Below the pieces are notes generated by a model, which saw only the letters and a program-made list of their open reading frames with translations, did not search any database and was not told the origin of the DNA. The position numbers and the translations under genes are program-made. This document shows, piece by piece, positions 1-15,537 of a DNA stretch of 32,000 bases (position 1 is its first letter; each line of letters begins with the position of its first letter). This DNA is from Opitutales bacterium. GTDB lineage: Bacteria > Verrucomicrobiota > Verrucomicrobiia > Opitutales > Coraliomargaritaceae. The stretch spans positions 166,871-198,870 of the forward strand of contig JBMYVL010000001.1 of assembly GCA_049606355.1 (NCBI GenBank), written 5' to 3'.

Positions 1-61
1 ATCGAACGCATCAGCCCAGCAATGAGTTGCCCGACTCAAGCTCCTGACAAAGTAGCCCGAT

Positions 62-89
62 AAAAAAAGACCCGCAGCGCTGCGGGTCT
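62..89 (-). terminator. Rho-independent terminator of the secretin operon
   Basis: Perfect 22-nt palindrome AGACCCGCAGC/GCTGCGGGTCT at 68-89, giving a GC-rich 9-bp stem and a 4-nt loop. On the minus strand it is followed by a run of 7 T (the A-run at 62-68 on plus). It lies 24 nt downstream of the secretin stop codon (114-116). On the plus strand only TT follows, so it mainly serves the minus strand. Confidence 0.8.
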
Positions 90-113
90 TGGCAAACAAT
101 TGATTTGGGATGA

Positions 114-2519
114 CTATTCCTCAGTCAAATCCACAGAACGATTCGCTGCGCCGGAAGGCGTCATCACCGTTGGGTTTTGGAACAGGGCATTGGCCTTCGC
201 ATTCGGATAATTCTGGCGCGCCAGCGAGCCGCCCGGGCTAACCAAGTTAGCGGTAACGAAAATCAGCAAGTTGCGCTTTTGGCGGGTCTCCCCCTCCGAG
301 CGAAACAGACGCCCGACTCCCGGAATATCCCCCAGTAACGGCACCTTATCGCTTACCGTCTTCACTTCATCGCGGGTCAAGCCCCCCATCACTAAAGTAG
401 CGCCATCAAACACGGTTACCTCCGTAGAAATCTGCCGTGTTGAAAAGATAGGCTGATAAAAGCCAGCGGGCACAGTAACCGTCGTACCACCCGAAATCGC
501 AATGCTGGGCCCTCCATACTCCACAAAGCCTTCAAATTCGGTAACGGTCGGCTCTAAAATGAGGCTGATGGAATCATCATTCTCGACATTGGGCGTAACC
601 GCCAGCTCGACGCCGACGTTACGCGTCACAAAGTCTTCAGGGGTGCCTGCCGTGATCGAAATGGAGGATCCGCCGCCTTCATCGCCAGCGCCACTACTGG
701 TCGAGGCAGTCGACTCAATATCGCCGTAACTCTCCGGATAGCGCAACTCTTGTGCCACCGAAATCGTGGCGCGCTTGCCGGACAACACGGTGACCTTTGG
801 TGCGCTCATTAGATCCGTACCTGACTTGCGCGACAATGCGCGCAGTTCAAGATCAAGATTATTGGTTGATCCCAAGCCGATGATGCCTGCCTTATTAAAG
901 GTGGCTCCAGCCACGCCCGATGCCACATCCGTGGCCAAATCGGTCACTGAAGGTAACACGGGAGGAGTAATGGACCCTTTGTTAACTCCATCTATTAAAA
1001 TTTCACTCCCTTCTTGGGAGACTCCAAAGGCGTCGGCGAGCGAACGCGGCTTAAATTGCGAGACTTTAGTTTCTCCGTCATAGTGTGTCCAATTGAAGCC
1101 GAGTTCCTCTAAGTCACCTTGGGCAACTTCTAAGAATTTCGCCTCAATCTCAACCTGTTTGACTTCGCTGTAGTTGCGTAAGATGGCACGCATCCGATCC
1201 AGGTTTTGGCGGGTCTGGGTTACGATGAGTTGCTCCCCGTCAAAAGCGAGGCTGGCACCCGGCAACCCGAAATTCACGCCCGCACGCTGAAAAAAGGCCT
1301 GCAGGGCATTGGTTTTATCATCGGCGACGACTCTCGCTTCGATTGCTGCAGCAAAGGGATCGGCCGACGTGACCGAAGCTGCGCCTCCCTCACCAAAGCC
1401 TGTGAGGCGAATCACGGTTCCCGCAGAGATGGGGAAAAATTCAGTAACGGTGCTTTGCGTGCCCGCTTGACCAAAACTCGGCGACACCGTCACCGCATCC
1501 GCGCCCACCTCGTAAGTGAAGTTCACCTGCTGCGTCACGAATTGTAAGATACGATCGAGGCTCAGGTTACGCAGGCTGATATTCACCCGTGGGTTATTCT
1601 CACTCGGATTGAAAAGCGGCACAATATTGACGCCGATACGATCGGGGTCGTACTCAAGTGACAGTTCGGACAAAGTCTCAAGCACCCGGGTGAGCTCCAT
1701 ATTGGAAAAGTTCACCTGCGGAATCACAATCGTGGACAATTTCTGTTGGACTAAACTAGGCCCGGAACTCTGTGCGAATGAGCCTTCAGCAATGTCAAAG
1801 ACTTTGGGACGATCCCATTGCTGATCCACTTCGGTGAGCATTTGCGCGCGTGTTTTATAGAGATTTTCGGCGTGAATGCCACCAAGGACCAGAGCAATAC
1901 GCTTCGAAAACAATTTCGCTTCCTTGTTGTTGGCGTCACGCGCTTCCACCTCCCGAAACGTTTGCGCCGCACCTTCGTAATCACCATGCAAAAATTGTGT
2001 ACGCCCGCGCACCAGCAAGTCACGTGTGATCTTAGCTTGAGCCACATGGCTAGGGCTCACTTCCTCGATAGTGAGTGCATTCGGATCAGCCCGTTGCGCC
2101 GCAGAGTCGTCTGCGGCTTGAACACGAACCAAGGCCTCGAGCTCGGCTGGAGCAGTAACAGTCGGTGGCACATCGATAGTCGATGCCTTTTGAGGAGCAC
2201 TTGAGAGACCGCCAGAAACTATAGGTGGTGATACCGAGTCGCGACTGGCGGCAGTCTTATCCAAAGCATCATTGATCGAAGCGAGAAGTTGGTGAACATG
2301 CACATCCTCGGGGGCGACCTTGATGAGTGCTTCAGCCTTCGCCTTCGCAGTCACCAGATCACCCGAGTCACGTGCACGTAGCGTATCTGCCATCAGACGG
2401 ATCTTGCTAGGCTCTTGAGCGATTGCCAGCGAAGGCAGGGCCAACCAAGCAGTGCCAAGTGCACAGATAACGAGTGCCATCGCTTTGCGGGAACGAAGAT
2501 AAAAACATTGGTTCATCAT
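114..2519 (-). CDS. Secretin (PilQ/GspD family outer-membrane channel) with a long N-terminal helical/TPR-like extension
   Basis: The C-terminal secretin signature is present: KVPLLGDIPGVGRLFRSEGETRQKRNLLIFVTANLV. The N-terminus has a signal peptide (MMNQCFYLRSRKAMALVICALGTAWLALPSLAIA/QEP). The position 2520-2522 of the ORF track is TTG, and the first ATG is at 2519. It is the last gene of a PilM/N-containing operon. Confidence 0.9.
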   Translation of the reverse strand: MMNQCFYLRSRKAMALVICALGTAWLALPSLAIAQEPSKIRLMADTLRARDSGDLVTAKAKAEALIKVAPEDVHVHQLLASINDALDKTAASRDSVSPPIVSGGLSSAPQKASTIDVPPTVTAPAELEALVRVQAADDSAAQRADPNALTIEEVSPSHVAQAKITRDLLVRGRTQFLHGDYEGAAQTFREVEARDANNKEAKLFSKRIALVLGGIHAENLYKTRAQMLTEVDQQWDRPKVFDIAEGSFAQSSGPSLVQQKLSTIVIPQVNFSNMELTRVLETLSELSLEYDPDRIGVNIVPLFNPSENNPRVNISLRNLSLDRILQFVTQQVNFTYEVGADAVTVSPSFGQAGTQSTVTEFFPISAGTVIRLTGFGEGGAASVTSADPFAAAIEARVVADDKTNALQAFFQRAGVNFGLPGASLAFDGEQLIVTQTRQNLDRMRAILRNYSEVKQVEIEAKFLEVAQGDLEELGFNWTHYDGETKVSQFKPRSLADAFGVSQEGSEILIDGVNKGSITPPVLPSVTDLATDVASGVAGATFNKAGIIGLGSTNNLDLELRALSRKSGTDLMSAPKVTVLSGKRATISVAQELRYPESYGDIESTASTSSGAGDEGGGSSISITAGTPEDFVTRNVGVELAVTPNVENDDSISLILEPTVTEFEGFVEYGGPSIAISGGTTVTVPAGFYQPIFSTRQISTEVTVFDGATLVMGGLTRDEVKTVSDKVPLLGDIPGVGRLFRSEGETRQKRNLLIFVTANLVSPGGSLARQNYPNAKANALFQNPTVMTPSGAANRSVDLTEE

Positions 2520-2528
2520 CAAATTAAT

Positions 2529-3458
2529 TTATGCTCTATAGTTAAAGTGCTGATCGTGAAAGAAAGCGATCACCTTGTCCTCAGGAATCGACTCATTTGG
2601 ATTTTCGAGATTCCTCGCTGCGATCGTCTCCGGAGGCGAGGAAAGGGTGAGCGTTTCCGTCTGCTCTGGCGACGCATCGGATTCTAATTTTTTCAGTGTG
2701 ATGCTTGCGCCCTCAAAGTCGATCGCTTCCACTTGAAATTTCCCAAACGGGGTCAAGAAAGACTCGCCGATCGCAGTTGGACGGATTTCGACGGTTTCAT
2801 CTTCGGCAGAGCGTAACACGATCTCAATACGATCTGCATACAACGCTTGCCCATGAATAAAGGTCTTTTCGACGCCAGTGCGGCAATCGAGAATCTTCGC
2901 AGTCGCCGCTTTGGTTAAACTGCCATCCCCTTCCATCCGGCGCACCACATCAAAGCTCAACACTTCGAATGCTGCCGATTCAAGGGTATCGCCGACTCGA
3001 GCGCGCAGGCTGCTATCCGTTTCCCTGTCATAAAATAAGAGCAAGGTTTTGCGGCCCTCCGTAAACTCCTCTTCGATATAGCCATCCAGCTGAATTCGAT
3101 ACAGGGGACGCTCAAGCTTGGCTAAATAGAGACCAAAGGGAGCGAATGTCGCGGAATCTTCATACGGCGAATGGATCGTAAACGAACCGTCAGGCCCAAG
3201 AAAAATCTGCGGTGGCGTGAATAGATCATACACCCACCCCGAGGGCTGGGGCTGCGCTTCAGGCCAATGAACTGGCTTCGTTTTCGCCGCAGGCACTGGT
3301 TGCGGCACGAAAGCTGCACCCTGCAGAACAACAGCAGGAGAACTCGACGGTGAGTTTGGCATCGGCACCCATGCAACCGCAACGATCCCACTGGCGCTGA
3401 GCACCAGAAGCCCCATCAGAAACAGTAGCTTGTCGTAAGCCTTATCCATCAAACTCAT
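2529..3458 (-). CDS. Bitopic membrane protein in the PilP position: N-terminal TM helix, Pro-rich linker, beta-rich periplasmic domain
   Basis: The ORF extends to 3554, but that would overlap the upstream gene by 113 nt. In-frame ATGs at 3458 (MSLMDK) and 3449 (MDKAY) sit just before a TM helix (LLFLMGLLVLSASGIVAVAWV). A Pro/Ser-rich linker (PMPNSPSSSPAVV...PQPVPAAKTKPVHWPEAQPQPSGW) follows, then a WVYDLFTPP motif reminiscent of the DPF motif of PilP/GspC-type proteins. I recognise no named family with certainty. Confidence 0.65.
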   Translation of the reverse strand: MSLMDKAYDKLLFLMGLLVLSASGIVAVAWVPMPNSPSSSPAVVLQGAAFVPQPVPAAKTKPVHWPEAQPQPSGWVYDLFTPPQIFLGPDGSFTIHSPYEDSATFAPFGLYLAKLERPLYRIQLDGYIEEEFTEGRKTLLLFYDRETDSSLRARVGDTLESAAFEVLSFDVVRRMEGDGSLTKAATAKILDCRTGVEKTFIHGQALYADRIEIVLRSAEDETVEIRPTAIGESFLTPFGKFQVEAIDFEGASITLKKLESDASPEQTETLTLSSPPETIAARNLENPNESIPEDKVIAFFHDQHFNYRA

Positions 3459-4449
3459 CTGGCAGAACCTGTTTTTGAATGCGGGTTTTGAGCGCTCCCA
3501 AAATCTCAATAAACTCAAGCTCGAGCGTGAAGCGGGAAATATTCTCAGAAACAATGGGCTTTTGCGTCTCGCGGGGCGCAGTCGACAAGGCGGGGTTCAT
3601 CGTACTGAAAGCACCCAAAAGTGCATCGAATGAATGGCTGCGCTCATCTTTCACATCCACAGCAAGCTTGTCCGGACGACGGACTTCCATACTACGAACC
3701 ACAATCGGCAATTGAAACTCCGCCAGCGCATTCAAAAATTCACGCAATGAGCGAGAATAACCACTAAAAGTGATTCGAAATGCGGTCGTACCGATGACGC
3801 CGGGCACTCGTGCGGATACTGCGGGGTCGATGCGATACCCTTCAAGCGAACCGTTTTTCGCGGTTGTGCGCTCAAGCCATTCGCGTTCAACGGCATCAAT
3901 ACGAAGCGGATTCGCAGCCATCAACTGGGCGACAATATGCGACAAAATCTGACGCTGCTGATCCAGCCGTGGGATTACTTCTACCGAATCCGGAACGGTG
4001 GCTTCTACGGCATAAGCCTCAAAACCAAACGCGCACGCTTCGGACAACTCGATCGGCGCCAAAACCTCTTGCTGTTGCGCCGTACTGAAGCGTCGATGCG
4101 CTGATGCCTGTTGGCGGGACTCAACGATGAATTGCTGAATCCCAGCCATCACACTCACGCCGTCGCTGGATAGCGTCATTTGAGCGCCGCGCTGCAAATC
4201 ATCGCCGATGCGGTGCAGTGCATGTGTTAATTGGGTCAAATTATCCTGAGCCAGAGCAATATTTTCGTCGGACGGGGCGGGCGAAGCAGTCACCAATGCT
4301 TGCAAGCGCAGACTGGCTGCGGTTGCCGCACGCTGCGCCTCGAGGGCCTCAGATATGGCGCTCCACGCACAGTACAGTCCGGATACGACGAACAGAAGAC
4401 ACAACACTATCAGCGCAACGAATCGTGGATTCTTTTGGGCTGCAGGCAT
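3442..4449 (-). CDS. Amuc_1100-like bitopic protein (PilO-position component of the secretin operon)
   Basis: ATG start at 4449. The N-terminus has a TM anchor (FVALIVLCLLFVVSGLYCAWSAI) followed by a coiled-coil-like segment. Several stretches resemble the Akkermansia Amuc_1100 sequence as I remember it: CAFGFEAY vs LGFQVY, LPIVVRSMEVRRPD vs LFTVNSIRIRNER, and KPIVSENISRFTLELEFIEI vs KPYMGKEQVFVKVSLNLVHF. This is a memory-based comparison, not a search. Its position between the PilM-N fusion and the secretin supports the call. Confidence 0.6.
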   Translation of the reverse strand: MPAAQKNPRFVALIVLCLLFVVSGLYCAWSAISEALEAQRAATAASLRLQALVTASPAPSDENIALAQDNLTQLTHALHRIGDDLQRGAQMTLSSDGVSVMAGIQQFIVESRQQASAHRRFSTAQQQEVLAPIELSEACAFGFEAYAVEATVPDSVEVIPRLDQQRQILSHIVAQLMAANPLRIDAVEREWLERTTAKNGSLEGYRIDPAVSARVPGVIGTTAFRITFSGYSRSLREFLNALAEFQLPIVVRSMEVRRPDKLAVDVKDERSHSFDALLGAFSTMNPALSTAPRETQKPIVSENISRFTLELEFIEILGALKTRIQKQVLPDEFDG

Positions 4450-4452
4450 CCG

Positions 4453-6123
4453 TTAAAGTGGTTGCGTCGCATCGACGCTAAGATGAATGACGAAAGGTAA
4501 AACATTCAGGCCCTCATTCAATTTAGTCCATCGAATGACCGGTTGCTTCGCTGCGACGACGAATTCCGAGTCCAGAAAATTGGACTGCAGTTGCTTGATG
4601 CGACGCGTCAGCAAGGCACGATCGACTTTTGAGGTAGGGTGGATTGGCTCCCGGACCAACATTTCCCCAGAGAGAGTAATCGTAGTGCCCGAATCGCCCT
4701 CCTGCAAATCGCTGCGCGTCACGATAAGCGAATCCAGCCACACGTCTTCAATTTGAGTGAGGCTAGCCTGTAGCTCCGCACAAAACTGGATCCAGTTCGC
4801 CTTCGATTCAATCAGCGCTTCGACCCCACGAATCTCATCTCGTAATGCACTCACAGTAGCGGTTAATTTGGCAAGCACGCTTTGCTTGGAGCTCAATGGC
4901 TGAACCAGCGCAGTTAATTCCGCTGTCTGCGCCCGGTAGGCACGCTCACTTTGCTTACAACTGAAAAAGACCGTCCATGGTGCGAGCGCCAAACAAGCGG
5001 CAGCAACCGCAAGAAAAGGTATTTTAGTGCCAAAGCATCGCTCACGCTTCATCGCATCGGGCAACAAATCGACCATTGCGGGATTCGTAATCTGACCACA
5101 AATCGCTTCTCCGACAATCGCACTGGCTGCGAGTTTCAACCCAGCTGCACTCTCGGCGGCACCGGCAGCAAATGTTACTGCCTGCAGTGGATCAAAAGTG
5201 CGAACGGCGATTTGCGTAGATGTTTCTAGTTCGTCTGCCAAAAGCTTCAGTGGACCATCACAACCACTGAGTCGAATCTGTACGGGTGCTGCGATGCCTT
5301 GCTGTCGACGATAACGAACCATTGATCGGTCGACTTCTTGGCGCATGCGACATACGAAAGCAGTTAGGCTGCCATTCCTCTCTCGAGCACTTTCAGAATC
5401 GTCCTCGCCCCCTCGAGCAGCTTCATCTGACTTGAGCGGCATCGTTTCGCCCACAGGTAAGTTTCGTCTCGAGTGAGTCGAGCTGCTTCGAGGCAACATA
5501 CTGGTACCTAAGCCGAGATGACGCGCGAAAAAACCATTCGCATGGACATACAGTAGACTCGATGCGCGCACTCCGACATGCACCCACAGCACGTCGGTTT
5601 CGGGCTCTGGCTCAACAAATCGAAACGTATTATAATCGAGCACAGAGGCCACTCGAATCGCGGTAACGCGAAGCGCAGTCCGTGACACACACGCGCAGAG
5701 TTTTTCAAGAGTCCTTACCTCACAGGCGACAACTAGAACCTCGGCCTCGACTCCATCATCGCCGATTACTTGGCTATCCCAAACGACTTCATTTAAAGCG
5801 TAGGGTATGCTTTGCTGAATCTCATAGCTAATGACTTCCTTGCGCTTGGAGGTCTCGACCTGAGGTATGCGGATCGTCTTCGTCAGCACCTGATTGCCCG
5901 GCAGAATAAAAGTTGCCGGGCCCGATAGCTGGTGCTGCGTCGTCAATTTTTGCAACGCTGCATCTACAGCAGTTAGCCATGCATCCGCGGATGTATGTGC
6001 ATACTCCAGCCGCTCGGAAACAATTTTATCAATTCGCAGCACCGGGCCACGATAAGAGACCAAGGCTGCAGTTAGCGCAGAAGACCCGCAATTTACAATG
6101 AGTCGATTCGATTTTCTGCTCAT
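4453..6123 (-). CDS. PilM-PilN fusion protein: cytoplasmic actin-like ATPase-fold domain, one TM helix, periplasmic PilN-like domain
   Basis: The N-terminus (NRLIVNCGSSALTAALV) matches the phosphate-1 type beginning of PilM/FtsA actin-like proteins. A single TM helix (IPFLAVAAACLALAPWTVFF, nt 4960-5022) is followed by a coiled coil and a roughly 100-aa C-terminal domain, as in PilN. The ORF-track start at 6141 is TTG. The first ATG is at 6123 (MSRKSN). Confidence 0.75.
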   Translation of the reverse strand: MSRKSNRLIVNCGSSALTAALVSYRGPVLRIDKIVSERLEYAHTSADAWLTAVDAALQKLTTQHQLSGPATFILPGNQVLTKTIRIPQVETSKRKEVISYEIQQSIPYALNEVVWDSQVIGDDGVEAEVLVVACEVRTLEKLCACVSRTALRVTAIRVASVLDYNTFRFVEPEPETDVLWVHVGVRASSLLYVHANGFFARHLGLGTSMLPRSSSTHSRRNLPVGETMPLKSDEAARGGEDDSESARERNGSLTAFVCRMRQEVDRSMVRYRRQQGIAAPVQIRLSGCDGPLKLLADELETSTQIAVRTFDPLQAVTFAAGAAESAAGLKLAASAIVGEAICGQITNPAMVDLLPDAMKRERCFGTKIPFLAVAAACLALAPWTVFFSCKQSERAYRAQTAELTALVQPLSSKQSVLAKLTATVSALRDEIRGVEALIESKANWIQFCAELQASLTQIEDVWLDSLIVTRSDLQEGDSGTTITLSGEMLVREPIHPTSKVDRALLTRRIKQLQSNFLDSEFVVAAKQPVIRWTKLNEGLNVLPFVIHLSVDATQPL

Positions 6124-6150
6124 CGGTATGGGCGTAAGCAAAGCCCGAGG

Positions 6151-6741
6151 CTAAGGCTGTGCTTCACGACGGATAAATACAGGTTGGTTACGTGCTTGGG
6201 TTGTGAATTTCACCGGTGTAAAGTAGGCAGGCAGGAGCAGGTGGTTCGTTTGCATCAACTGCGCACTCGCTTTGGCTTGCATGTTTCTAAGCATCGCGAT
6301 GTCGCGGATCGAACGGCTCAAAGCTTTGCCGGACTCGCGGGGATCCTGCGGGATCCCCTCCACCGATAGCTCTATAGAGTAGTACTTCGGGCGTACAGGA
6401 AGGGCATCCCGTTTCACGATCGGCCCTGGTAGATAGAAGTAGACACTGTTTTTGTGACGCGCCTCCATAACCATGATTTCAACTGAAGCTGAATAAAACC
6501 GAAACTCACCGTTCGCCAATGCGTAGCCCAACAATGGTGTCACGGTAATATTTTCTACAAAATCGGCATTCCGCGCAGTAGGTGACGGATTACCCAGGCA
6601 CAGGAGTTCAATCTCAACCTGCGTCCAGTTATCACCGAGCGCATCAAACTTGACGCGCTCTACCATGATGCTTGATTGCCCAAACAACGAGGTGGAGGCA
6701 GCCATTAAACCCAGTAGGAGTCTCGGGCGCAGTTTGGTCAT
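6151..6741 (-). CDS. Small secreted protein of unknown function, first gene of the secretin operon
   Basis: ATG at 6741. It has a Sec-type signal peptide (MTKLRPRLLLGLMAASTSLFGQSS) and mixed beta/alpha content. There is no class III prepilin motif. Only 9-27 nt separate it from the PilM-N gene. It occupies the position of Amuc_1102 in the Akkermansia cluster (synteny inference only). Confidence 0.6.
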   Translation of the reverse strand: MTKLRPRLLLGLMAASTSLFGQSSIMVERVKFDALGDNWTQVEIELLCLGNPSPTARNADFVENITVTPLLGYALANGEFRFYSASVEIMVMEARHKNSVYFYLPGPIVKRDALPVRPKYYSIELSVEGIPQDPRESGKALSRSIRDIAMLRNMQAKASAQLMQTNHLLLPAYFTPVKFTTQARNQPVFIRREAQP

Positions 6742-7000
6742 GGTGACAGTTGATCGGATATCCGTGACGCTTGGGACCTAATATAAAAAAATAAAACCCT
6801 ACAGGGCGCCAATGGGAACTCGAACACTGACACACCCCCTTGCCATAAACTGTCATGTGTTAAATCGCAGCACAGTGGGCGCGCCAATAACAATTTCTAG
6901 AACTGCCGTGAATAACTTATAAATATACCGCGCGCCTCCACACCGGCCAGCAGCCGACAAAAGCCTTGCTCCAAGCGAGCAGATTGAAACTTTCATCTAT
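6742..7000. promoter_or_regulatory. Divergent intergenic region likely holding promoters for the secretin operon (-) and the NUDIX gene (+)
   Basis: This is a 259-nt non-coding gap between divergently oriented start codons. It contains the most AT-rich tract of the window (TAATATAAAAAAATAAAA, 6779-6796). On the minus strand this reads TTTTATTTTTTTATATTA, which includes a TATATT -10-like hexamer about 35 nt upstream of the ATG at 6741. No convincing -35 element is visible. Confidence 0.3.
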
Positions 7001-7501
7001 ATGCCTACCGAGCTTCCCTTCAAAATCAGTGTGTTGGTCTTTTTGCGCAACGCACGTGGCGACCACTTGCTGATCCAGCGGCGTAAGGCGCCGAATCAAG
7101 GTTGCTGGAGCCCGATTGGCGGTAAGCTGGATATGCATATCGGCGAGTCGCCCTACGAATGCGCCCGCCGGGAAACACACGAAGAGGTTGGCTTAGCATT
7201 GACCGATGCCGAGCTTCACTGCTTCGGCTATATCTCTGAGAAGAGCTACGAAGGCACCGGCCATTGGCTGATGTTCCTCTTTGACTGCCGGCAGCAGCTC
7301 GAGTCACTCCCTGCCACCATCGACGAGGGGCACTTCGCATTTTTCAGCCGTACTGCGATTGATACACTACCGATTCCGGAAACCGATCGCACCCTACTAT
7401 GGCCTTATTATGACAATTACCGGCAGGGCTTCGTCGGCTTGCGTGCCAACTGCGATCCCGCCGGCAAGCTATCGCTCGTGGAAGAACTCAAGCTACTGTA
7501 G
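7001..7501 (+). CDS. NUDIX hydrolase
   Basis: A Nudix box is present: GGKLDMHIGESPYECARRETHEEVGL (G-x-E-x7-REuxEExGu pattern). ATG start at 7001. The 166-aa length is typical of single-domain NUDIX enzymes. Confidence 0.85.
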   Translation: MPTELPFKISVLVFLRNARGDHLLIQRRKAPNQGCWSPIGGKLDMHIGESPYECARRETHEEVGLALTDAELHCFGYISEKSYEGTGHWLMFLFDCRQQLESLPATIDEGHFAFFSRTAIDTLPIPETDRTLLWPYYDNYRQGFVGLRANCDPAGKLSLVEELKLL

Positions 7502-8563
7502 TTCGAAGGCCCCATTGCGCACCTTCCAGACTGACCACGCCTCACTGGCTTCCGGCAGCTCGGTGCCGGTGGCGATCATTTGCCAAGCACTCGGGCTGGC
7601 CCGCCAAAAGCCGGCTTTACGCCGTGGGTCCAGCTCACCCAGTACATCGTCAGCCAAGAGTACTGGCGCGATACTCAAGCTGGCCTCAAACATGCGGGCC
7701 TGAGCGATCCGCAGCGCCACGCATAAGCCTCGTTGTTGCCCATCGGAGGCAAATTCCTTGGCGCCACCGGTATGCAAAACGAACGCTACATCATCGCGGT
7801 GGGGACCGCGTTGAGTTGAACCGATCGCTTGATCGCGCGTGCGGCTTTGCTCAAAGACCTCGCGCAGCGCCGCCACCGTCTCGCATTCGAGATTCGGTTT
7901 AAACTGGAGCTCTGGGCCCTCATCTGCCTCCGCAATTGAAGTATAGGCGTCACTTAAATGAGTCTGCAGGCGAGCTACCCCAGCCTTCCGCTTCACACTT
8001 AGCTGTAATGCCTGCGGTGCCAATTCCGCCTCGAAGGCAGACAGTTCCGCCGCACTGCCGCCACGCTTCAACAAGCGATTCCGCCCCGCGATGCCGCGAT
8101 GATAATGGCGTAAAGCTTGATAATACTCCCCATCCATAGCCGAAAGCGTTAAATCAAGAAAGCGGCGGCGCTCGCTCGGCGCACCACGCAGTAGCATCAG
8201 ATCGCCGGCACTCAGCGGAACGACCGGGAAGCGTCCAATAAAATCGCCTAAGCGGGAGACCCGCTCGCCATCCAGCCAAACCTGATGCCCCTGCCCGCCG
8301 GCGCGGATCTCGAGTTCCGTTTGCCCTAAGGTTTCATGTTCAACCGTATACACCAATGCGTAGCCCTGCGCCCCTTGGCGGCGCAACGCGGAAGTCTGCT
8401 GCGTGCGAAAGGACCTTAAAGCCGTGACTAGGCCCAGCGCTTCGAGCAGGTTCGACTTACCTTGTCCATTCGGCCCCAGTAAAAAACTACGCGCGGGCGC
8501 TAAATCCAGTTCCGCAAAGGTGATATTGCGAAAGTCCTGCAGGCGTAAATGGAGGAAGCGCAT
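7493..8563 (-). CDS. recF: DNA replication and repair protein RecF
   Basis: The N-terminus (MRFLHLRLQDFRNITFAELDLAPARSFLLGPNGQGKSNLLEALGL) is a RecF-type start with Walker A GPNGQGKS. The C-terminal region has an SMC-like signature (SDGQQR) and Walker B (LLADDVLGELD). The ATG at 8563 gives about 356 aa. The upstream ORF extension to 8665 would overlap the cysteine desulfurase gene. Confidence 0.9.
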   Translation of the reverse strand: MRFLHLRLQDFRNITFAELDLAPARSFLLGPNGQGKSNLLEALGLVTALRSFRTQQTSALRRQGAQGYALVYTVEHETLGQTELEIRAGGQGHQVWLDGERVSRLGDFIGRFPVVPLSAGDLMLLRGAPSERRRFLDLTLSAMDGEYYQALRHYHRGIAGRNRLLKRGGSAAELSAFEAELAPQALQLSVKRKAGVARLQTHLSDAYTSIAEADEGPELQFKPNLECETVAALREVFEQSRTRDQAIGSTQRGPHRDDVAFVLHTGGAKEFASDGQQRGLCVALRIAQARMFEASLSIAPVLLADDVLGELDPRRKAGFWRASPSAWQMIATGTELPEASEAWSVWKVRNGAFELQ

Positions 8564-8574
8564 ACCGTTCGTTC

Positions 8575-9696
8575 TTAGATCGTGACGACCGCGGAGCCGG
8601 AAGCCTCTTCCTCTGCTCGCAATTCCGCATATACGGCACGTAGCTCGGTGGCGAGCTCGGCCCACTCTTGTGGAGTTGTTGCCGCGCTACTACTGATACG
8701 TAAACTGCGACGCATCGCTGCGTCTGAAATGCCCATCGCCGCCAGTACCGTTGAAGGTCCAGCCTTGGCAGTGGCGCAGGCCGCACCGGAACTGAGCCAA
8801 TAGCCACGCTTCTCCAACGCACGAATCCAACGATTGCTGGCAAACTCCGGAGCCAAGAGCAGCGCCGTGTTCCACAATCGCGCTGCCCCTTGACCGACGC
8901 ATTCAAATTCTGGTAAGGCCGCTAAAAAAGCATCGCGACCTGTCGACTCCCCCACTCGCGCTGCGGCCAAGGCAGCCACCATTGCCATGATCCCGGCGAC
9001 ATTTTCCGTACCCGCGCGCCGACCCGACTCCTGGCCTCCGCCGGCAAAACAGGCGAAGCCGGATTCATCTGCCGGCAACAACCAAAACCCAACCCCACGC
9101 GGTCCGCCAAATTTATGCGCACAGGCCGTCAGATAAGCGCAGGCAGCGAGCCCAGCGAGTGGCTGTTTACCTACCCATTGCGACGCATCGCAGTGATAGG
9201 CGACCCCAGCTGCTTGAGCCGCGTGCGCAATCGCCTGCCAAGGGTTCATAACCCCGGTTTCATGATTGGCGGCCATCACCGAAACTGCCGCCAATTCATC
9301 CCAGTTAATCGCTTCAAGAGCCACCGCGCCATTGCGATCGAGAGCCAACCATTCCACCCGATCCCCAAAGTAGCACTGCGCCGATTCAATCACACTGGGG
9401 TGCTCGGTTGGGCTCACTCCAATGCGTGCCCCTGCAGGCAAGCTAGCCGACCAGTAGGCAAAGATCGCATTATTGCCCTCGGTCGCACCCGAGTTGAAGA
9501 CGACCCGCTGCGACTCCACGCCCAACAGCGTCGCTAGCTCCGAACGCGCGGCCTCTAAGTGCGCATGGACTCGTGCAGCCGCGCGATAGGGACTCGAGGG
9601 ATTCAGCCAAAGGTCATCATTTGCGCGATTCCATGCGGCCCTGGCCTCCACACATAGCGGAGTGGTCGCATTGCAATCAAAATAGCGCATTTCCAT
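8575..9696 (-). CDS. Cysteine desulfurase (class V aminotransferase, NifS/IscS-like)
   Basis: A PLP-lysine motif (ACAHKFGGPRGVG) and an active-site cysteine loop (LSSGAACAT, compare SSGSAC of IscS/NifS) are present. The N-terminus (YFDCNATTP) is typical of the family. Confidence 0.85.
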   Translation of the reverse strand: MEMRYFDCNATTPLCVEARAAWNRANDDLWLNPSSPYRAAARVHAHLEAARSELATLLGVESQRVVFNSGATEGNNAIFAYWSASLPAGARIGVSPTEHPSVIESAQCYFGDRVEWLALDRNGAVALEAINWDELAAVSVMAANHETGVMNPWQAIAHAAQAAGVAYHCDASQWVGKQPLAGLAACAYLTACAHKFGGPRGVGFWLLPADESGFACFAGGGQESGRRAGTENVAGIMAMVAALAAARVGESTGRDAFLAALPEFECVGQGAARLWNTALLLAPEFASNRWIRALEKRGYWLSSGAACATAKAGPSTVLAAMGISDAAMRRSLRISSSAATTPQEWAELATELRAVYAELRAEEEASGSAVVTI

Positions 9697-9708
9697 GGCG
9701 CAGTCTTA

Positions 9709-10485
9709 CTAAGGGATTCGCAGGTCCTGCCCGACGCGCAGCGCATTCTCACTGGACATGCGATCCCGATTTGCTTGGTAAATATCAATCCAGCGCGAGG
9801 GGGTTCCGTAAAACTTGCGGCTAATCGAGCTGAGCGAATCTCCGGATTGGACGGTGTAACTGCGTGGCACTGTGGCCGGATCCGGTGCGGCCCTAGCCAC
9901 TGGCGCTGCTGGCTCCACCCGCGGTACGGCAGGCTGCGGTACGGCGGCAGATGCCGACGTCGACGATGCCCGTCGTGCGCCGCCCAGCATTCCTTCCAAC
10001 TGGCGGACGCGTTGCTGCGCGGCAACCCACTCGCGCTTCAGGCTCTCATTTTCCTGCTTCAGGCCTTTGAGTAGCTCCATTAAATCAATACGGTCCAGCT
10101 GGCCCTCGTAGGGCCGTGCCGGCAACTGCCGAGCAAACTCCTTTTCGGCAGTCTCAACCAACTGCTCAACTTGCATCAATTGGTTCGAGTCGGGCTTCAA
10201 TTGGATATAGCGCTTAAAATGATAAATCGCACTGATCGGATCCTTCATCTCCTGCAGGTAAATGTAACCCGCCTCAAAATGCGATTCGGGGGCATCACGA
10301 CGCGCATCAATTACTCTCAGAAAGGCACTCAGGGCCTCCTCGACACGACCCTGTGCCTGATAGCCCTTCGCCAGTTGATATTGCTTTTCATCCGTCTCGC
10401 TAACGACTTCCACCAGTTCCGGCGAACACCCAGGGAGCAGGCAGCTTAGGCAAACAGCAGTGAGACAAAGACGGAGGCAGTGCAT
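9709..10485 (-). CDS. Lipoprotein with TPR-like repeats, a coiled coil, a Pro/Ala linker and a C-terminal LysM peptidoglycan-binding domain
   Basis: A lipobox is present (CLSCLLPG/CSP). There is TPR-like helical content (YQLAKGYQAQGRVEEALSAFLRVI...YIYLQEMKDPISAIYHFKRYIQLKPD). The C-terminus carries a LysM domain (YTVQSGDSLSSISRKFYGTPSRWIDIYQANRDRMSSENALRVGQDLRIP). Confidence 0.8.
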   Translation of the reverse strand: MHCLRLCLTAVCLSCLLPGCSPELVEVVSETDEKQYQLAKGYQAQGRVEEALSAFLRVIDARRDAPESHFEAGYIYLQEMKDPISAIYHFKRYIQLKPDSNQLMQVEQLVETAEKEFARQLPARPYEGQLDRIDLMELLKGLKQENESLKREWVAAQQRVRQLEGMLGGARRASSTSASAAVPQPAVPRVEPAAPVARAAPDPATVPRSYTVQSGDSLSSISRKFYGTPSRWIDIYQANRDRMSSENALRVGQDLRIP

Positions 10486-10540
10486 AACAAATGAGAATCA
10501 ACTCGAATAAACGGTAGCTTCAACAAAGACCGCAGAACAA

Positions 10541-11548
10541 TCAACCCCCAACCGTAGCTGCAGCCGGCTGCAGCAAGATCTTACCGAACCGTGGCTGTTG
10601 GGCATGTTCAATCGCAGCGGCAAAGGCTGGAAGTGGATAGGTTGCTGCGACCGGCAACTGTAAGCTGCCGTTCAAAAGCATTGAGAATACCGCATCCATG
10701 ACGGCCTGGACCTCCTCCGTGCCCGCTGCTTGACTCCACTGGTCCCACCAAAAACCCCGCAAGCGTAGGTCATTAAAAATTAGATAACGCGTCGGGAATC
10801 GGATCGGATCGCCCACCATACCCCCAAAGGTCACTTGCAGGCCGCCCTGCCCCAGCGCTTTGATTTGGTCGATTGCGCTACGCCCGCCAATCGAATTGAG
10901 TGCCAAACGGATCGTCGCGCCATCGGTCAAAGTCGCCACCGATTGCACCCAATCACTGCCTTCGAGCACCACATGATCGGCCCCAAGCGCCTTGAGCGGC
11001 TCCTGCAACTCCGGACGACGGACTTGGCTGATCGTGCGCAGCCCCATGGCTTTCGCCATTTGTATTACTGCCAAGCCCACTGCAGAGTTGCCGGCATTTT
11101 GTACCACCCAGCTGCCTTTGGGCAGATCCACCATGCGAGTTAACAAGCAGTAGGCGGTCGGTGGGTTGATAAAGGCCATGGCCGCCTGCTCCACCGACAC
11201 TGCTTGTGGCACCAGCAGTAGCTCGTCGACCGAAACACATGCGAACTCTTGCCATGCGCCCACAGCGGGGAAGCGCACGCGAGTTCCAAGCGCAACATCC
11301 GCCACTCCGGCTCCCAGCGCATCGACCTCGCCCACTCCCTCGCGACCCGCCACCGCGGGTAATGGGCGCAACTTCCCATAACTGCCTGCGATCATACCTA
11401 AGTCCGAAGGATTGATTGCCGCTCGCAGTAAGCGTATGCGTACCTCACCCGCTTGAGGCTCAGGGCGGTCGATTTGCTCGAGGCGAAGGACCTCCCGCGG
11501 GGCTCCGTAGCTATGGTGACGAATCGCTGCTTGCTGACGCATACACAT
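10541..11548 (-). CDS. MDR-superfamily NAD(P)H-dependent oxidoreductase (quinone oxidoreductase / 2-enoyl thioester reductase-like)
   Basis: GEVRIRLLRAAINPSDLGMIAGSYG...PAVAGREGVGEV is typical of zinc-independent MDR enoyl reductases and quinone oxidoreductases. The nucleotide-binding stretch is VVQNAGNSAVGLAVIQMAK. Alternative ATG starts lie at 11548 and 11542. Confidence 0.75.
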   Translation of the reverse strand: MCMRQQAAIRHHSYGAPREVLRLEQIDRPEPQAGEVRIRLLRAAINPSDLGMIAGSYGKLRPLPAVAGREGVGEVDALGAGVADVALGTRVRFPAVGAWQEFACVSVDELLLVPQAVSVEQAAMAFINPPTAYCLLTRMVDLPKGSWVVQNAGNSAVGLAVIQMAKAMGLRTISQVRRPELQEPLKALGADHVVLEGSDWVQSVATLTDGATIRLALNSIGGRSAIDQIKALGQGGLQVTFGGMVGDPIRFPTRYLIFNDLRLRGFWWDQWSQAAGTEEVQAVMDAVFSMLLNGSLQLPVAATYPLPAFAAAIEHAQQPRFGKILLQPAAATVGG

Positions 11549-11687
11549 AACTTGCGCGGATCACATGCCACCCGCAAAGATTTTTCACTCGATGGCGCAT
11601 ATAAAAGCAGATCCAGAGTTGCCTCCGCAGACATCTCATTCATTCACTGTGCTATCTCCAACGACAGACCTCGATTCATTACACCTC

Positions 11688-13751
11688 ATGGCGCACCCAT
11701 TCCTCTCCAATGACTTTCATATTCGCTGGTCGACGCTCACTCCTGCAGCCATCGAAGCCGACATCACACAAGCGCTGGTTGACGCGGAAGCCGCCGTGGC
11801 AGCGATCACCGCTGAGGGCAACGCCGCCGAGTTGAGTTATGCCAGTACTTTCGGAGCACTCGATCGCGCACTCGAGCCACTCAATCACGCCTGGGGGCTC
11901 GTCAGCCATCTCGATTCCGTGTGCAATAGCCCCGAGCTTCGCACGGCCTACAATGCGATGCTGCCAAAGGTCTCCGCATTCTTCGCGGCCATTCCACTCA
12001 ATCAAGCACTCTGGCAGCACCTCAAGGCTTATGGTGAAACTGCCGCGATCACCGATCTTTCACCGACCCGCCAGCGTCACGTTCAAGAAACCCTGGCCGA
12101 CTTCCGCGAACAGGGCGCCGATCTGCCACCGGAACAAAAACAACGGGCGGCCGCGCTGCAGGAGCAGCTGGCCAAACTCACCCAGAAATACTCCGAAAAC
12201 TGTCTGGATGCGACCAATGCTTGGGAACGAGTGGTGAACGACCCCAGCGAACTCGCCGGACTACCTGAATCCGCCCGCGCCGCCGCCCGCCAAAGTGCCG
12301 AACAGGCGGGCTATTCCGAAGGCTGGCGTTTCACCCTACAGGCGCCGAGTTACATCGCAGTGATGACCCATGCGGACAGCGAAGCCTTGCGCAAAGCTGT
12401 CTGGCAGGCCTATGCCGCACTCGGTCGCGAAGCCCCCTACGACAACCGCGAACTGGTTCGCCAAATTCTGGACCTGCGTCATGAGTTCGCCCAACTGATG
12501 GGACGAGCCCACTTCGCCGACCATGTGACGGCGCGCCGCATGGCGGGATCCGGGCAGGCAGCCCTCGACTTCGGGGAAAGCATCTTTGCTCGCCTCGAAG
12601 CCGCATTTCAAAGCGAAGCCCTGACCTTGCGCGCCTTTAAAGCCTCCGCCACCGGCGTCGCTGCCCCCGCAGGAAAGGAGCCCCCACTGATGGAGCCATG
12701 GGATGTCGCCTACTGGGCCGAAAAACAGCGGGAGGCAAACTACGATTTCGATGAAGAAGCCCTGCGGCCCTACTTCCCCATCGATCGCGTCGTTGAAGGA
12801 CTATTCGCCATCACCGAGGAGCTCTTCGGCTTGCGCATCGCAGCACGCGATGACGTCGATGTCTGGCATCCCGATGTGCAATTTTACGAGCTACATGACC
12901 GTGATTCCGGCGAGCACCTCGGCTCTTTCTACGCGGACTGGCACCCGCGGAGTTCGAAGCGGGGCGGCGCATGGATGAACTACCTGACCACCGGCGACCG
13001 CGATCCGCAACAGCGCAGCCCTCACCTCGGTCTTATCTGCGGTAATCTGAGCCCCGCCATCGGCGACCAACCCGCGCTCCTGACTCATCGCGAAGTGGAA
13101 ACGATCTTCCACGAATTTGGCCATTTATTGCATCACCTGTGCGGCGAGGTCGAAGTCAAATCCCTCAATGGTGTCAACGTGCCATGGGATTTTGTCGAGC
13201 TCCCCTCGCAAATTCTGGAGAATTGGTGCTGGGAGCGTGCCAGTTTAGACCGCTTCGCGCGCCACTACCAAAGCGATGCACCGATCCCCCAGTCATTGTT
13301 TGAAAAACTGTGCCGTGCGCGCAATTACCGGAAAGCCAGTACCGCGGCTCGCCAACTCGCCTTCGGTAAAATGGACCTCGAGCTACACATCAACTGGCCC
13401 AAAAGCGAGCAGTCAGACCTCGATACGTTTATCGAGACGGCGCTGCAGGCCTACACACTTGCTTACCGGACCCCGCCGCAATCAAACGTCTTTAATTTCA
13501 GCCACCTGTTTAGCAGCCCGACCGGATATGCTGCCGGCTACTACAGTTACAAATGGGCCGAAGTCCTCGATGCGGATGCCTTCACCCGCTTTCAGAAGGA
13601 AGGGATCCTCAATCCAGCAACTGGGCGCGCGTTCCGTCATACTATTCTCGCCAAAGGAAACGCGGCTGACCCCGCCCAGTTGTTTCGAGATTTCATGGGG
13701 CGCGACCCCGACCCCGAAGCGCTGTTGCGCCGCGATGGACTGATCGAGTAA
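11688..13751 (+). CDS. M3-family zinc metallopeptidase (oligopeptidase A / peptidyl-dipeptidase Dcp-like)
   Basis: The zinc motif HEFGHLLHH is present, with a downstream E in FVELPSQILENW. Other M3-typical blocks are AYWAEK and GYAAGYYSYKWAEVL. I prefer the ATG at 11688 (MAHPFLSNDF) over the ORF-track start at 11565, because homologs begin near this point and 11565 would crowd the divergent promoter region. Confidence 0.9.
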   Translation: MAHPFLSNDFHIRWSTLTPAAIEADITQALVDAEAAVAAITAEGNAAELSYASTFGALDRALEPLNHAWGLVSHLDSVCNSPELRTAYNAMLPKVSAFFAAIPLNQALWQHLKAYGETAAITDLSPTRQRHVQETLADFREQGADLPPEQKQRAAALQEQLAKLTQKYSENCLDATNAWERVVNDPSELAGLPESARAAARQSAEQAGYSEGWRFTLQAPSYIAVMTHADSEALRKAVWQAYAALGREAPYDNRELVRQILDLRHEFAQLMGRAHFADHVTARRMAGSGQAALDFGESIFARLEAAFQSEALTLRAFKASATGVAAPAGKEPPLMEPWDVAYWAEKQREANYDFDEEALRPYFPIDRVVEGLFAITEELFGLRIAARDDVDVWHPDVQFYELHDRDSGEHLGSFYADWHPRSSKRGGAWMNYLTTGDRDPQQRSPHLGLICGNLSPAIGDQPALLTHREVETIFHEFGHLLHHLCGEVEVKSLNGVNVPWDFVELPSQILENWCWERASLDRFARHYQSDAPIPQSLFEKLCRARNYRKASTAARQLAFGKMDLELHINWPKSEQSDLDTFIETALQAYTLAYRTPPQSNVFNFSHLFSSPTGYAAGYYSYKWAEVLDADAFTRFQKEGILNPATGRAFRHTILAKGNAADPAQLFRDFMGRDPDPEALLRRDGLIE

Positions 13752-13837
13752 GTCGTCCCACACCCGTGTTGTTTAAGACAGTCGATTCCTGTCGGATTAG
13801 GAGCTGCGCTGGTTGAGTCTGCGCGCACAACGAATAC

Positions 13838-13863
13838 ACTACCTTTACTCCCAGAAAGGTAGT
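13838..13863 (+). promoter_or_regulatory. 5'-UTR hairpin occluding the ribosome-binding region of the FG-GAP gene
   Basis: A 9-bp perfect stem (ACTACCTTT at 13838-13846 pairing with AAAGGTAGT at 13855-13863) closes an 8-nt loop (ACTCCCAG). The 3' arm contains the only purine-rich SD-like element (GAAAGG) and ends one nucleotide before the ATG at 13864. Confidence 0.45.
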
Positions 13864-15537
13864 ATGAAACACTCTCAATCAACCCTTCAATACATCCAAT
13901 CCATTGCGCTGCTTGGTGCTTGTGCCATCAGCTTTTCCCTATCCACTCGAGCCAACTCAAGCGACCCCGCTCCATTTGCCTATACACTCGATAGCTATGC
14001 ACCACTGACCCTTTATTCGGGGTGCCACGTGGCCGACCTAGACTCCAATGGCTCACTTGAGCTAATTCTAGGCCAGCGTTACTGGAATGATGCCGGCAAC
14101 ATCGAGATCTGGGCGCTTGCCTCCACGCCCAAGACACTCACACGAGAAACGCAGCTTTACCTATCGGGAGAACCCCATGCGGTTCAAGCCGCTGATTTCG
14201 ATGGTGACGGCTTGAAGGAGATTGTCGCCGCCGGGCGCGGCTGGGGGCCTCATTACGCCGACTCATCAACGACGGGCTGGAGCCCGCCAGTCGCCCTCTC
14301 ACCGCAAGCCTACAGTTGGCAGGTGGCCGTTGCCGATTTTGATGCGGATGGCACCCCTGACTTCTTTCAAGGAGTCAACGGCTCTGCGGTCGGCCGTATC
14401 TTTTACGGCAATGGCGACGACAGCTTTACCGTGGTCAACTTGGCCCCGGCGTACAACCGCGGGCTCGGCTTTACCGCCATTGATGTCAACGCGGACGGCA
14501 CAGTTGACCTAATCGGCATGCAAGATGCCGGTACAATCTCCTACCTAACGGTTTACTACAACCTGGGAGGGCGCACGTGGTCAGCACCCAACTACGTGGC
14601 GCAGGTGCCGGGTCCGGTCGATCCGCATGTCGCGCCCAGCGCCGGCGATTTTAATGGGGATGGCGCCGTTGACGCGGTTACCCTGCAGTACCAAGGTTCC
14701 ACATCCAGCGATCTTGTCTACTTCGAAGGCGGCAGCGGGCCGACCTGGACGCCACGTGTGATTGAAACGCTCAGCGGTCGTTGGGGGATGCCGGCAGTGG
14801 GCGACGTCAACAATGACGGCCGGCTTGACATCCTCATTGGCGGCGGTGCCAGCAAGGAAGACCTCCTCATTTATCGCGGCGATGGCTCAGGGGGCTTTAT
14901 CCGCCAAACGATCGACCTCGATCATGGTGCAGGCGCCTTGAACTTCCTGAACGTGGCCGATTTGAATGCCGATGGCTATGCAGATATTGTCGCCGGCCGT
15001 GGCCTCGTCGGAGGCCCGACGCCCGCAGCCGATGGTTTTGATGTCTTTTGGGGGCAGGAACCCGACAGCGATTTAGACGGGGTCGTCGACAGCCTCGATA
15101 ATTGCCCATATATTGCGAACCCCACCCAGATCGATACCGATATGGATGGGCTCGGCGATGCCTGCGATCCGCTTACCTATCAATTCAGTGGATTTTTTAG
15201 ACCGCTCGACAACGACCGCATCAATCGAGCCAAGGCGGGGCGGACCATCCCGATTCAATGGCACTTGTCTGATCTTGCCGGCCAGCCCGTGACCGATCCC
15301 GCGAGTTTTATCAGCATAACTTCGGTCGCAGTCGCTCTCAGCGAGACCGATGAAGCCATTGCCGTCGAAGCCACGACAGCCGGCGCATCCGGTTTACAGA
15401 ACCTCGGCGGCGGGTTCTGGCAGTATAATTGGAAAACTCCCAAAGATTATGCCGGCACCGGGCGGCGGGTCTACCTCAACCTGGCCGATCAGAGCGGTTG
15501 TCCATCCACTCGGACGATACAGTTTGAATTCAAATAA
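13864..15537 (+). CDS. Secreted FG-GAP/VCBS beta-propeller protein with thrombospondin type 3 repeats and a C-terminal beta domain
   Basis: A signal peptide follows the ATG at 13864 (MKHSQSTLQYIQSIALLGACAISFSLSTRA). There are at least six Ca-binding DxDxDG-type loops: ADFDGDGLKEIV, ADFDADGTPDF, IDVNADGTVDLI, GDFNGDGAVDAV, GDVNNDGRLDIL and ADLNADGYADIV. A canonical TSP3 repeat lies at nt 15061-15168 (DSDLDGVVDSLDNCPYIANPTQIDTDMDGLGDACD). The C-terminal roughly 115 aa (FSGFFRPL...GRTIPIQW...WQYNWKTPK) resemble the PxKF-type domain as I recall it. Confidence 0.85.
   Translation: MKHSQSTLQYIQSIALLGACAISFSLSTRANSSDPAPFAYTLDSYAPLTLYSGCHVADLDSNGSLELILGQRYWNDAGNIEIWALASTPKTLTRETQLYLSGEPHAVQAADFDGDGLKEIVAAGRGWGPHYADSSTTGWSPPVALSPQAYSWQVAVADFDADGTPDFFQGVNGSAVGRIFYGNGDDSFTVVNLAPAYNRGLGFTAIDVNADGTVDLIGMQDAGTISYLTVYYNLGGRTWSAPNYVAQVPGPVDPHVAPSAGDFNGDGAVDAVTLQYQGSTSSDLVYFEGGSGPTWTPRVIETLSGRWGMPAVGDVNNDGRLDILIGGGASKEDLLIYRGDGSGGFIRQTIDLDHGAGALNFLNVADLNADGYADIVAGRGLVGGPTPAADGFDVFWGQEPDSDLDGVVDSLDNCPYIANPTQIDTDMDGLGDACDPLTYQFSGFFRPLDNDRINRAKAGRTIPIQWHLSDLAGQPVTDPASFISITSVAVALSETDEAIAVEATTAGASGLQNLGGGFWQYNWKTPKDYAGTGRRVYLNLADQSGCPSTRTIQFEFK

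Follow-up and report, generated by a model that had tools for sequence, protein, structure and literature searches.

A divergent counterpart of the Akkermansia MUL2 secretin locus is predicted in a marine Opitutales bacterium

We analysed a stretch of 32,000 nucleotides from an Opitutales bacterium (GenBank assembly GCA_049606355.1, contig JBMYVL010000001.1, positions 166,871 to 198,870; hereafter the window) and, within it, a block of five closely spaced minus-strand genes, numbered here gene 1 to gene 5 from the upstream end of the predicted operon (Table 1). This block is probably the Opitutales (Puniceicoccaceae/Coraliomargarita-like) counterpart of the MUL2 locus of Akkermansia, a platform with its secretin and a likely role in glycan handling. 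The two parts of this reading carry different weights: judged from sequences and predicted folds, the homology and architecture are very likely those of MUL2, and a role of the Opitutales block in glycan acquisition, proposed by analogy, is a tentative suggestion. All five positions link to the Amuc_1102-Amuc_1098 cluster, three directly, one by fold and one transitively, which bears out the likeness in order noticed in the initial annotation of this DNA. The predicted operon is a divergent member of a named and partly structurally characterised system, not a new kind of machine.

The Amuc_1098-Amuc_1102 proteins were found jointly, and in abundance, in the outer-membrane fraction of Akkermansia in 2017 (PMC5332112), and reviews describe their genes as a type IV pili cluster in which Amuc_1098 is PilQ (PMC10688800). 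Crystal structures exist for Amuc_1100 (cited in PMC10688800), a protein described as PilO/PilN-like (bioRxiv 10.64898/2025.12.30.696933). In papers that cite Davey 2023, the cluster is equated with the MUL2 locus (PMC13174399, PMC12928651, PMC13524802) and MUL is reported to be required for outer-membrane mucin transport (PMC12928651, PMC13524802). A 2026 study in ISME J presents MUL2 as a type IV-like pilus locus that is conserved and shows synteny throughout Verrucomicrobiales, and ties it to fucoidan uptake in marine Akkermansiaceae; synteny was seen in 266 of 352 non-muciniphila Akkermansiaceae genomes, and the locus was found in 190 of 238 other Verrucomicrobiales, 97 of 235 Chthoniobacterales and essentially no Methylacidiphilales (PMC13174399). 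Opitutales were left out of that survey. Given this name, the reported need for it in mucin transport, the structures of Amuc_1102 and Amuc_1100 and the synteny data, the remark in the initial annotation that this machine still lacks functional characterisation is out of date.

Three of the window proteins, the secretin, the PilM fusion and the Amuc_1100-family protein, score best on Amuc-specific NCBIfam models. First, the gene 5 product is a secretin, as initially annotated, with a match to PF00263 over aa 562-761 (E = 1.1e-36). Its signal peptide is followed by a TPR-like N-terminal region (weak TPR_19 match, aa 179-211), an STN/N0-like domain (weak STN match, 21.7 bits, aa 309-348) and the C-terminal secretin domain, and no AMIN domain was reported in the Pfam scan. 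Among NCBIfam secretin models, the best match is Amuc_1098_fam (NF042912; E = 6.3e-111), to whose positions 126-803 the protein aligns from aa 136 to 768; the score of 371.8 bits is half of the equivalog cut-off of 750.

Second, gene 2 encodes an actin-like cytoplasmic PilM domain, a transmembrane helix, a coiled coil and a periplasmic domain. The PilM_2 profile (PF11104) is matched at aa 17-329 with E = 2e-11 and 43.9 bits, above its cut-off of 27. Furthermore, aa 12-474 align to positions 6-473 of the 608 in the Amuc_1101_fam profile (NF045709; E = 6.3e-60, 203.6 bits for a cut-off of 650), and since this match extends across the transmembrane helix into the coiled coil, the fusion architecture appears to be common to gene 2 and Amuc_1101. 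The start of gene 2 called in a 96%-identical relative is the ATG at 6123, giving 556 aa. Databases name the homologues of gene 2 "pilus assembly protein PilM". Among 11 diverse homologues, all match PilM_2 and one matches PilN (E = 0.0013). Of the PilM-PilN fusion initially proposed for this protein, the PilM domain, the membrane helix and the periplasmic extension hold, while a PilN match was not obtained.

Third, gene 3 matches Amuc_1100_fam (NF038287; E = 1.6e-16, 60.6 bits for a cut-off of 180) from residue 5 onwards, which supports the ATG at 4449 as its start. Its orthologues in three related loci (L025, L027 and L028) have precomputed Pfam matches to PF28028 Amuc_1100 (E ≤ 1e-5). On both counts gene 3 belongs to the Amuc_1100 family, as expected of a MUL2 locus. 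Searches of PDB sequences, with the single sequence and with a profile, gave no match, including to any Amuc_1100 chain that may be present there. The proteins at the PilO and PilP positions had been considered too divergent to name from sequence; the former can now be named, and the latter does require deep profiles. Of the five profiles put forward in the initial annotation, Secretin and PilM_2 were thus matched, whereas PilN (PF05137) and PilO (PF04350) had no match at E ≤ 1 in the window proteins and PilP (PF04351) had no Pfam match.

The fourth link, that of gene 1, is one of fold. The AlphaFold2 model of its product is a beta-sandwich with a helix (pLDDT 76.7 overall, about 85-90 in the core), and a Foldseek search of the whole PDB placed three chains of 7DSZ, the crystal structure of Amuc_1102, at the top (E = 2.4e-4 to 9.7e-4, TM-score 0.47-0.52, identity 11-13%). 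A homologue at 43% identity also has a faint match to Pfam PF28178 Amuc_1102. Together these results give moderate support to gene 1 as the Ig-like secreted protein of Amuc_1102 type found in MUL2. No Pfam or NCBIfam profile was matched by the protein itself, PDB sequence searches (single-sequence and profile) found nothing meaningful and did not reach 7DSZ, and a motif scan revealed no class III prepilin motif. Compared with the open reading frames (ORFs) upstream of the corresponding genes in Victivallales, the gene 1 profile gave an hhalign probability of 52%. Gene 1 homologues share a nearly invariant VYFYLPGPIV-RD and a C-terminal P-x-F-[IL]-RR-[DE].

The fifth position is reached in two steps. 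In the AlphaFold2 model of the gene 4 product, a transmembrane helix (residues 5-25) is followed by a Pro-rich linker, disordered and of low confidence, and by a beta-domain (110-272) with a pLDDT of about 90. No Pfam, NCBIfam or PDB sequence match was obtained with the single sequence or a profile, and the model had no Foldseek hit in the PDB at E < 0.01, neither PilP nor GspC. Nonetheless, the family is large, with 682 cluster representatives in an exhaustive profile search, and it can be connected to Amuc_1099 through Victivallales. Indeed, the Victivallales proteins at the gene 4 position match Amuc_1099_fam (E = 1e-12 and 3e-10; 40-48 bits, cut-off 50), and a deep gene 4 profile of 130 sequences aligns to them over 145 columns of the beta-domain with an hhalign probability of 96.8% (E = 2.7e-10). 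This profile alone succeeded; shallow gene 4 profiles compared with the same proteins gave weak probabilities of 31% and 2%. Distant members of the gene 4 family compared directly with the Amuc_1099_fam model (NF042425) scored weakly, at 21 and 16 bits. The cytoplasmic N-terminus of gene 4 proteins carries a short conserved YDK[IL]LL, which reads YEKILL in the Amuc_1099-like proteins of Victivallales. This motif and the conserved motifs of gene 1 could be docking or sorting signals. The Victivallales proteins at this position (loci L022 and L024) also contain Asp-rich repeats resembling thrombospondin type 3 repeats (weak MtsD/CglD matches).

Natural fusions of genes 3 and 4 were also encountered (P0240, P0302 and P0303, of 560-564 aa; P0304, 576 aa; P0292, 527 aa), spread over three separate clusters at 50% identity. 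They join a full gene 3-like part to the periplasmic part of gene 4, minus its transmembrane helix, and correspond to positions 2529-4449 of the window. By Rosetta-stone reasoning, these fusions suggest that the gene 3 and gene 4 proteins are in physical contact and may act jointly in the periplasm, a partnership like that of PilO with PilP.

The co-conservation of the block expected in the initial annotation is borne out. According to tblastn and ORF maps, at least 14 independent loci of Opitutae carry genes 1 to 5 in this order, all on a single strand. The order recurs in a 164-kb contig (L025), where the gene 2 product shares 96% identity with that of the window, and in the complete genome of Coraliomargarita sp. 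W4R53 (GCA_054209035.1; L028). Such recurrence in related loci sets the block far apart from a random assortment of genes. The nearest genomic relatives are Puniceicoccaceae, Coraliomargarita and other Opitutales metagenome-assembled genomes (MAGs), and the RecF-NUDIX neighbourhood of the block is kept in relatives too. Beyond Opitutae, Victivallales (Lentisphaerota) carry a modified block with two tandem TPR-secretins (L022:14298-19418, L024:14568-19515). In one marine clade gene 1 is absent (L005 and L008; also L003, L004 and L006 by tblastn). There, RecF-NUDIX directly adjoins the PilM-fusion gene, leaving a four-gene block (L005:9579-9991, L008:7013-7220). Two contigs with an Opitutales-type block sit in bins of Gammaproteobacteria or Bacteroidota, namely MAGs of Zhongshania aliphaticivorans (L006) and Polaribacter sp. 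(L008), the latter additionally with the Opitutales RecF-NUDIX synteny; both are probably mis-binned. A conserved ORF located 3′ of the secretin gene in freshwater Opitutae was considered as a sixth gene and rejected, as it encodes a 5′-3′ exonuclease.

Set beside Amuc_1102-Amuc_1098, where the genes run 1102-1101-1100-1099-1098 (PMC5332112, PMC13174399), the window has five genes in the corresponding order, likewise on one strand. In both cases the first gene encodes an Ig-like fold and pilin or ATPase genes are not adjacent, and the beta-domain of gene 4 is, through the transitive link, a remote homologue of the Amuc_1099 family. Yet the window copy is very divergent, as the direct NCBIfam matches fall under their equivalog cut-offs (372 against 750, 204 against 650 and 61 against 180 bits), genes 1 and 4 lack a direct link by sequence search, the neighbourhood, here RecF-NUDIX, is a different one, and the block belongs to a marine member of Opitutales instead of a mucin specialist of the gut. 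Several points weigh against the assignment to MUL2. With scores this far under the equivalog cut-offs, equivalence of function cannot be taken for granted. The link of gene 4 to Amuc_1099 is transitive only, as NF042425 is not matched directly by the window protein or by its homologues in Opitutales. The fold match of gene 1 to 7DSZ is moderate, and other Ig-like folds rank close behind. Since gene 1 is missing from the same RecF-NUDIX neighbourhood in L005 and L008, it is not an obligatory part of the system and is dispensable or relocated in that clade. Finally, paralogy in the style of PilN and PilO did not emerge, the C-terminus of gene 2 giving an hhalign probability of only 6.7% against gene 3.

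If the assignment to MUL2 is correct, the block would encode that part of a type IV filament machine which spans the envelope, without the motor. Its PilM domain would be fused to a PilN-like bitopic segment and have as partners an Amuc_1100 protein (PilO-like) and an Amuc_1099-like protein at the PilP/GspC position. These inner-membrane proteins may form a stack that docks onto the N-domains of the secretin, and prepilins, an ATPase and a platform protein with which the complex would cooperate are, if they exist, encoded elsewhere. By analogy with MUL2 and fucoidan uptake, its role could be the capture, or the passage across the outer membrane, of complex glycans in a marine polysaccharide-degrading lineage.

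In line with the initial annotation, Pfam scans of 20 ORFs near the block, together with motif scans, revealed no gene for a pilin, PilB/PilT/GspE, PilC/GspF or PilD within the 32 kb, and the motif scans detected neither a class III prepilin signal nor a GspE/PilB-type Walker box in the window. Nor were genes of a pilus or a type II secretion system (T2SS) seen in the close relative L025 in the 5.6 kb past the left edge of the window. Besides a small ORF, this stretch carries genes for an ABC1 kinase, a hybrid sensor kinase and a periplasmic binding protein, and an outer-membrane-channel-like gene. Moreover, prepilin and secretion-ATPase motifs were found in none of 24 related loci, with flanks of up to 10 kb per side as far as the contig reached. 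Classical pilMNOPQ operons, such as that of Pseudomonas aeruginosa, sit apart from the pilin, ATPase and platform genes. The local lack of such genes is therefore not unusual and is by itself no sign of autonomy. The description of the block as a stripped-down module is true locally, but it is weak evidence that the system is self-contained.

The same stand-alone arrangement, which is the norm for pilMNOPQ, suits the first alternative, an ordinary type IVa PilMNOPQ complex serving adhesion, twitching or DNA uptake, with pilins and PilB/C/D/T encoded elsewhere, as in Pseudomonas and Neisseria, and gene 1 as an accessory neighbour. As in such a complex, PilM, which is actin-like, precedes two bitopic proteins with coiled coils, one with a beta-domain and the secretin, in an operon separate from pilin and motor genes. 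The PilM_2 score above its cut-off, the PilM_2 matches of all the gene 2 homologues, their PilM names, the PilN match of one relative, the score of the secretin on PilQ and the absence of gene 1 in one clade all speak for such a complex. The subfamily models fit it less well, since the secretin scores 137 bits on PilQ (TIGR02515) for a cut-off of 284 and gene 2 scores 60 bits on pilM (TIGR01175; E = 1.9e-16) for a cut-off of 133, while the Amuc-specific families are consistently the best matches. There are also differences in architecture: PilM and the PilN-like segment form one polypeptide, the N-terminus of the secretin is TPR-like instead of bearing AMIN domains, and the block starts with an extra Ig-fold secreted protein. 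In addition, PilO and PilP have no Pfam match, and the gene 4 protein is bitopic and not a lipoprotein, its N-terminus being a transmembrane helix without cysteine or lipobox, and it has no PilP fold by Foldseek. On balance, we consider an ordinary type IVa complex unlikely.

The second alternative is an exporter of folded proteins resembling a T2SS, whose cargo would be carbohydrate-active enzymes, sulfatases or the gene 1 product, so that any defect in glycan uptake would be indirect. Genes 2, 3 and 4 would then correspond to GspL, GspM and GspC, the last contacting N0 of the secretin. The topology fits this scheme, as a cytoplasmic actin-like domain with a membrane helix and a periplasmic domain recalls GspL, a small bitopic partner recalls GspM, a bitopic protein with a linker and a beta-domain recalls GspC, and the secretin has an N0/STN-like domain. 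Indeed, the fusion and the bitopic gene 4 are nearer in topology to GspL and GspC than to a separate PilM and PilN with a lipoprotein PilP. The secretin also scores slightly higher on GspD (TIGR02517) than on PilQ, at 147 bits, gene 1 has a Sec signal like T2SS substrates, and weak T2SSL matches (PF05134) occur both in the window (E = 0.16, 11.8 bits for a cut-off of 25.5) and in two of the 11 gene 2 homologues (best E = 0.032). Set against this, the cytoplasmic domain is by profile clearly of PilM/FtsA type and not of GspL type, the GspD score is well under its cut-off of 351, and no GspC match was found by Foldseek. T2SS genes are usually clustered, and gspE, gspF and gspG-K are near neither the window block nor any of the 24 loci. 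With its GspL/GspC-like topology, T2SS-like export is a live rival, if a rather doubtful one.

An improbable and broader variant would make the system a self-sufficient glycan import gate of Planctomycetes-Verrucomicrobia-Chlamydiae (PVC) bacteria, common to Verrucomicrobiales, Opitutales and Lentisphaerota, with the secretin working inward and positioned by a fused PilM-N/Amuc_1100/Amuc_1099 stack, no motor, and the Ig-fold protein replacing the class III pilin as the surface glycan binder. Very improbable, finally, is a motor-less gate in which that stack holds open or positions the secretin for large glycans without pilus, pilin or ATPase: it agrees with the lack of motor and pilin genes in the window, in the 5.6 kb beyond and in the flanks of the 24 loci, with the outer-membrane mucin transport credited to MUL in the literature and with the "selfish" periplasmic glycan accumulation ascribed to Verrucomicrobiota, but local absence is uninformative about the rest of the genome, a PilM domain implies a cytoplasmic partner, and the Akkermansia literature lists further pilus genes elsewhere in that genome.

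The layout of the block agrees with the initial annotation in the coordinates and tight packing of the five ORFs. From gene 1 to gene 5, the spacings are 9 or 27 nt (depending on the start of gene 2), 3 nt, a 17-nt overlap and 6 nt. The strong terminator reported past the secretin gene was also recovered: the hairpin AAGACCCGCAGCGCTGCGGGTCTT is G+C-rich, with 10 bp of which 6 are G-C pairs and a 4-nt loop, and is followed by the T-run TTTTTAT (dG -19.6 kcal/mol, z -2.88 against shuffles). No match to the sigma-70 consensus was found in the intergenic region upstream of gene 1.

Table 1. Positions of the five genes and of the predicted signals flanking them in the window.
Feature	Position	Strand	Description
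Gene 1	6151..6741	-	196 aa; secreted by Sec signal, Ig-like beta-sandwich, Amuc_1102 (MUL2A)-like
Gene 2	4453..6141	-	562 aa (TTG) or 556 aa (ATG at 6123); Amuc_1101 (MUL2B)-like PilM fusion
Gene 3	3442..4449	-	335 aa; bitopic coiled-coil protein, Amuc_1100 family, PilO position
Gene 4	2529..3458	-	309 aa from ATG (341 aa in the longest ORF); remote Amuc_1099-family homologue, PilP/GspC position
Gene 5	114..2522	-	802 aa; TPR-bearing secretin, Amuc_1098-like
Hairpin with T-run	60..90	-	Intrinsic-terminator-like; 24 nt past the secretin stop codon
Intergenic region (259 nt)	6742..7000		Common to gene 1 and the divergent NUDIX gene; putative operon promoter region

The part of the window that holds the block (1-7000) has a G+C content of 0.51-0.54, lower than that of positions 7001-15000 (0.55-0.62). 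Horizontal transfer of the block, considered on account of the richer right flank, was rejected because the RecF-NUDIX neighbourhood is kept across marine Opitutales, a conservation that argues for vertical inheritance.

According to Pfam scans of the 20 neighbouring ORFs, the other 25 kb of the window are of housekeeping character. They encode NUDIX, RecF, a class V aminotransferase, a TPR-LysM protein, an alcohol dehydrogenase, an M3 peptidase and an FG-GAP protein, then a CAAX protease, a dUTPase, an enzyme of EPSP-synthase fold, RuvB, a SpoU methylase and TyrRS, and also AhpC, aconitase, a GAF-SpoIIE phosphatase, MreB and MreC. The FG-GAP protein (574 aa; 13813-15537, plus strand) contains five FG-GAP/VCBS-type repeats and a thrombospondin type 3 repeat, and is probably a secreted calcium-binding protein of adhesin type; in L025, a close relative, its gene likewise adjoins that of the M3 peptidase. 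Two ORFs, of 768 aa (19984-22290, minus strand) and 244 aa (16759-17493, plus strand), had no Pfam match at E ≤ 0.001.

The Akkermansia cluster owes its medical prominence to Amuc_1100 and Amuc_1098, both under study as TLR2-active therapeutics. The mechanism by which a secretin platform would mediate glycan uptake concerns the family as a whole and not the window in particular. Our results make a modest addition to published knowledge, namely a MUL2-type block in an order outside the 2026 survey. Copies in marine Opitutales, including culturable Coraliomargarita, together with the modified copy of Victivallales, suggest that the system lies deep in the PVC group, well beyond gut adaptation. 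The Opitutales and Victivallales copies offer non-gut models as well as natural variants of the system that could help to reveal its construction, in the shape of a four-gene form, fusions of genes 3 and 4, and tandem secretins.

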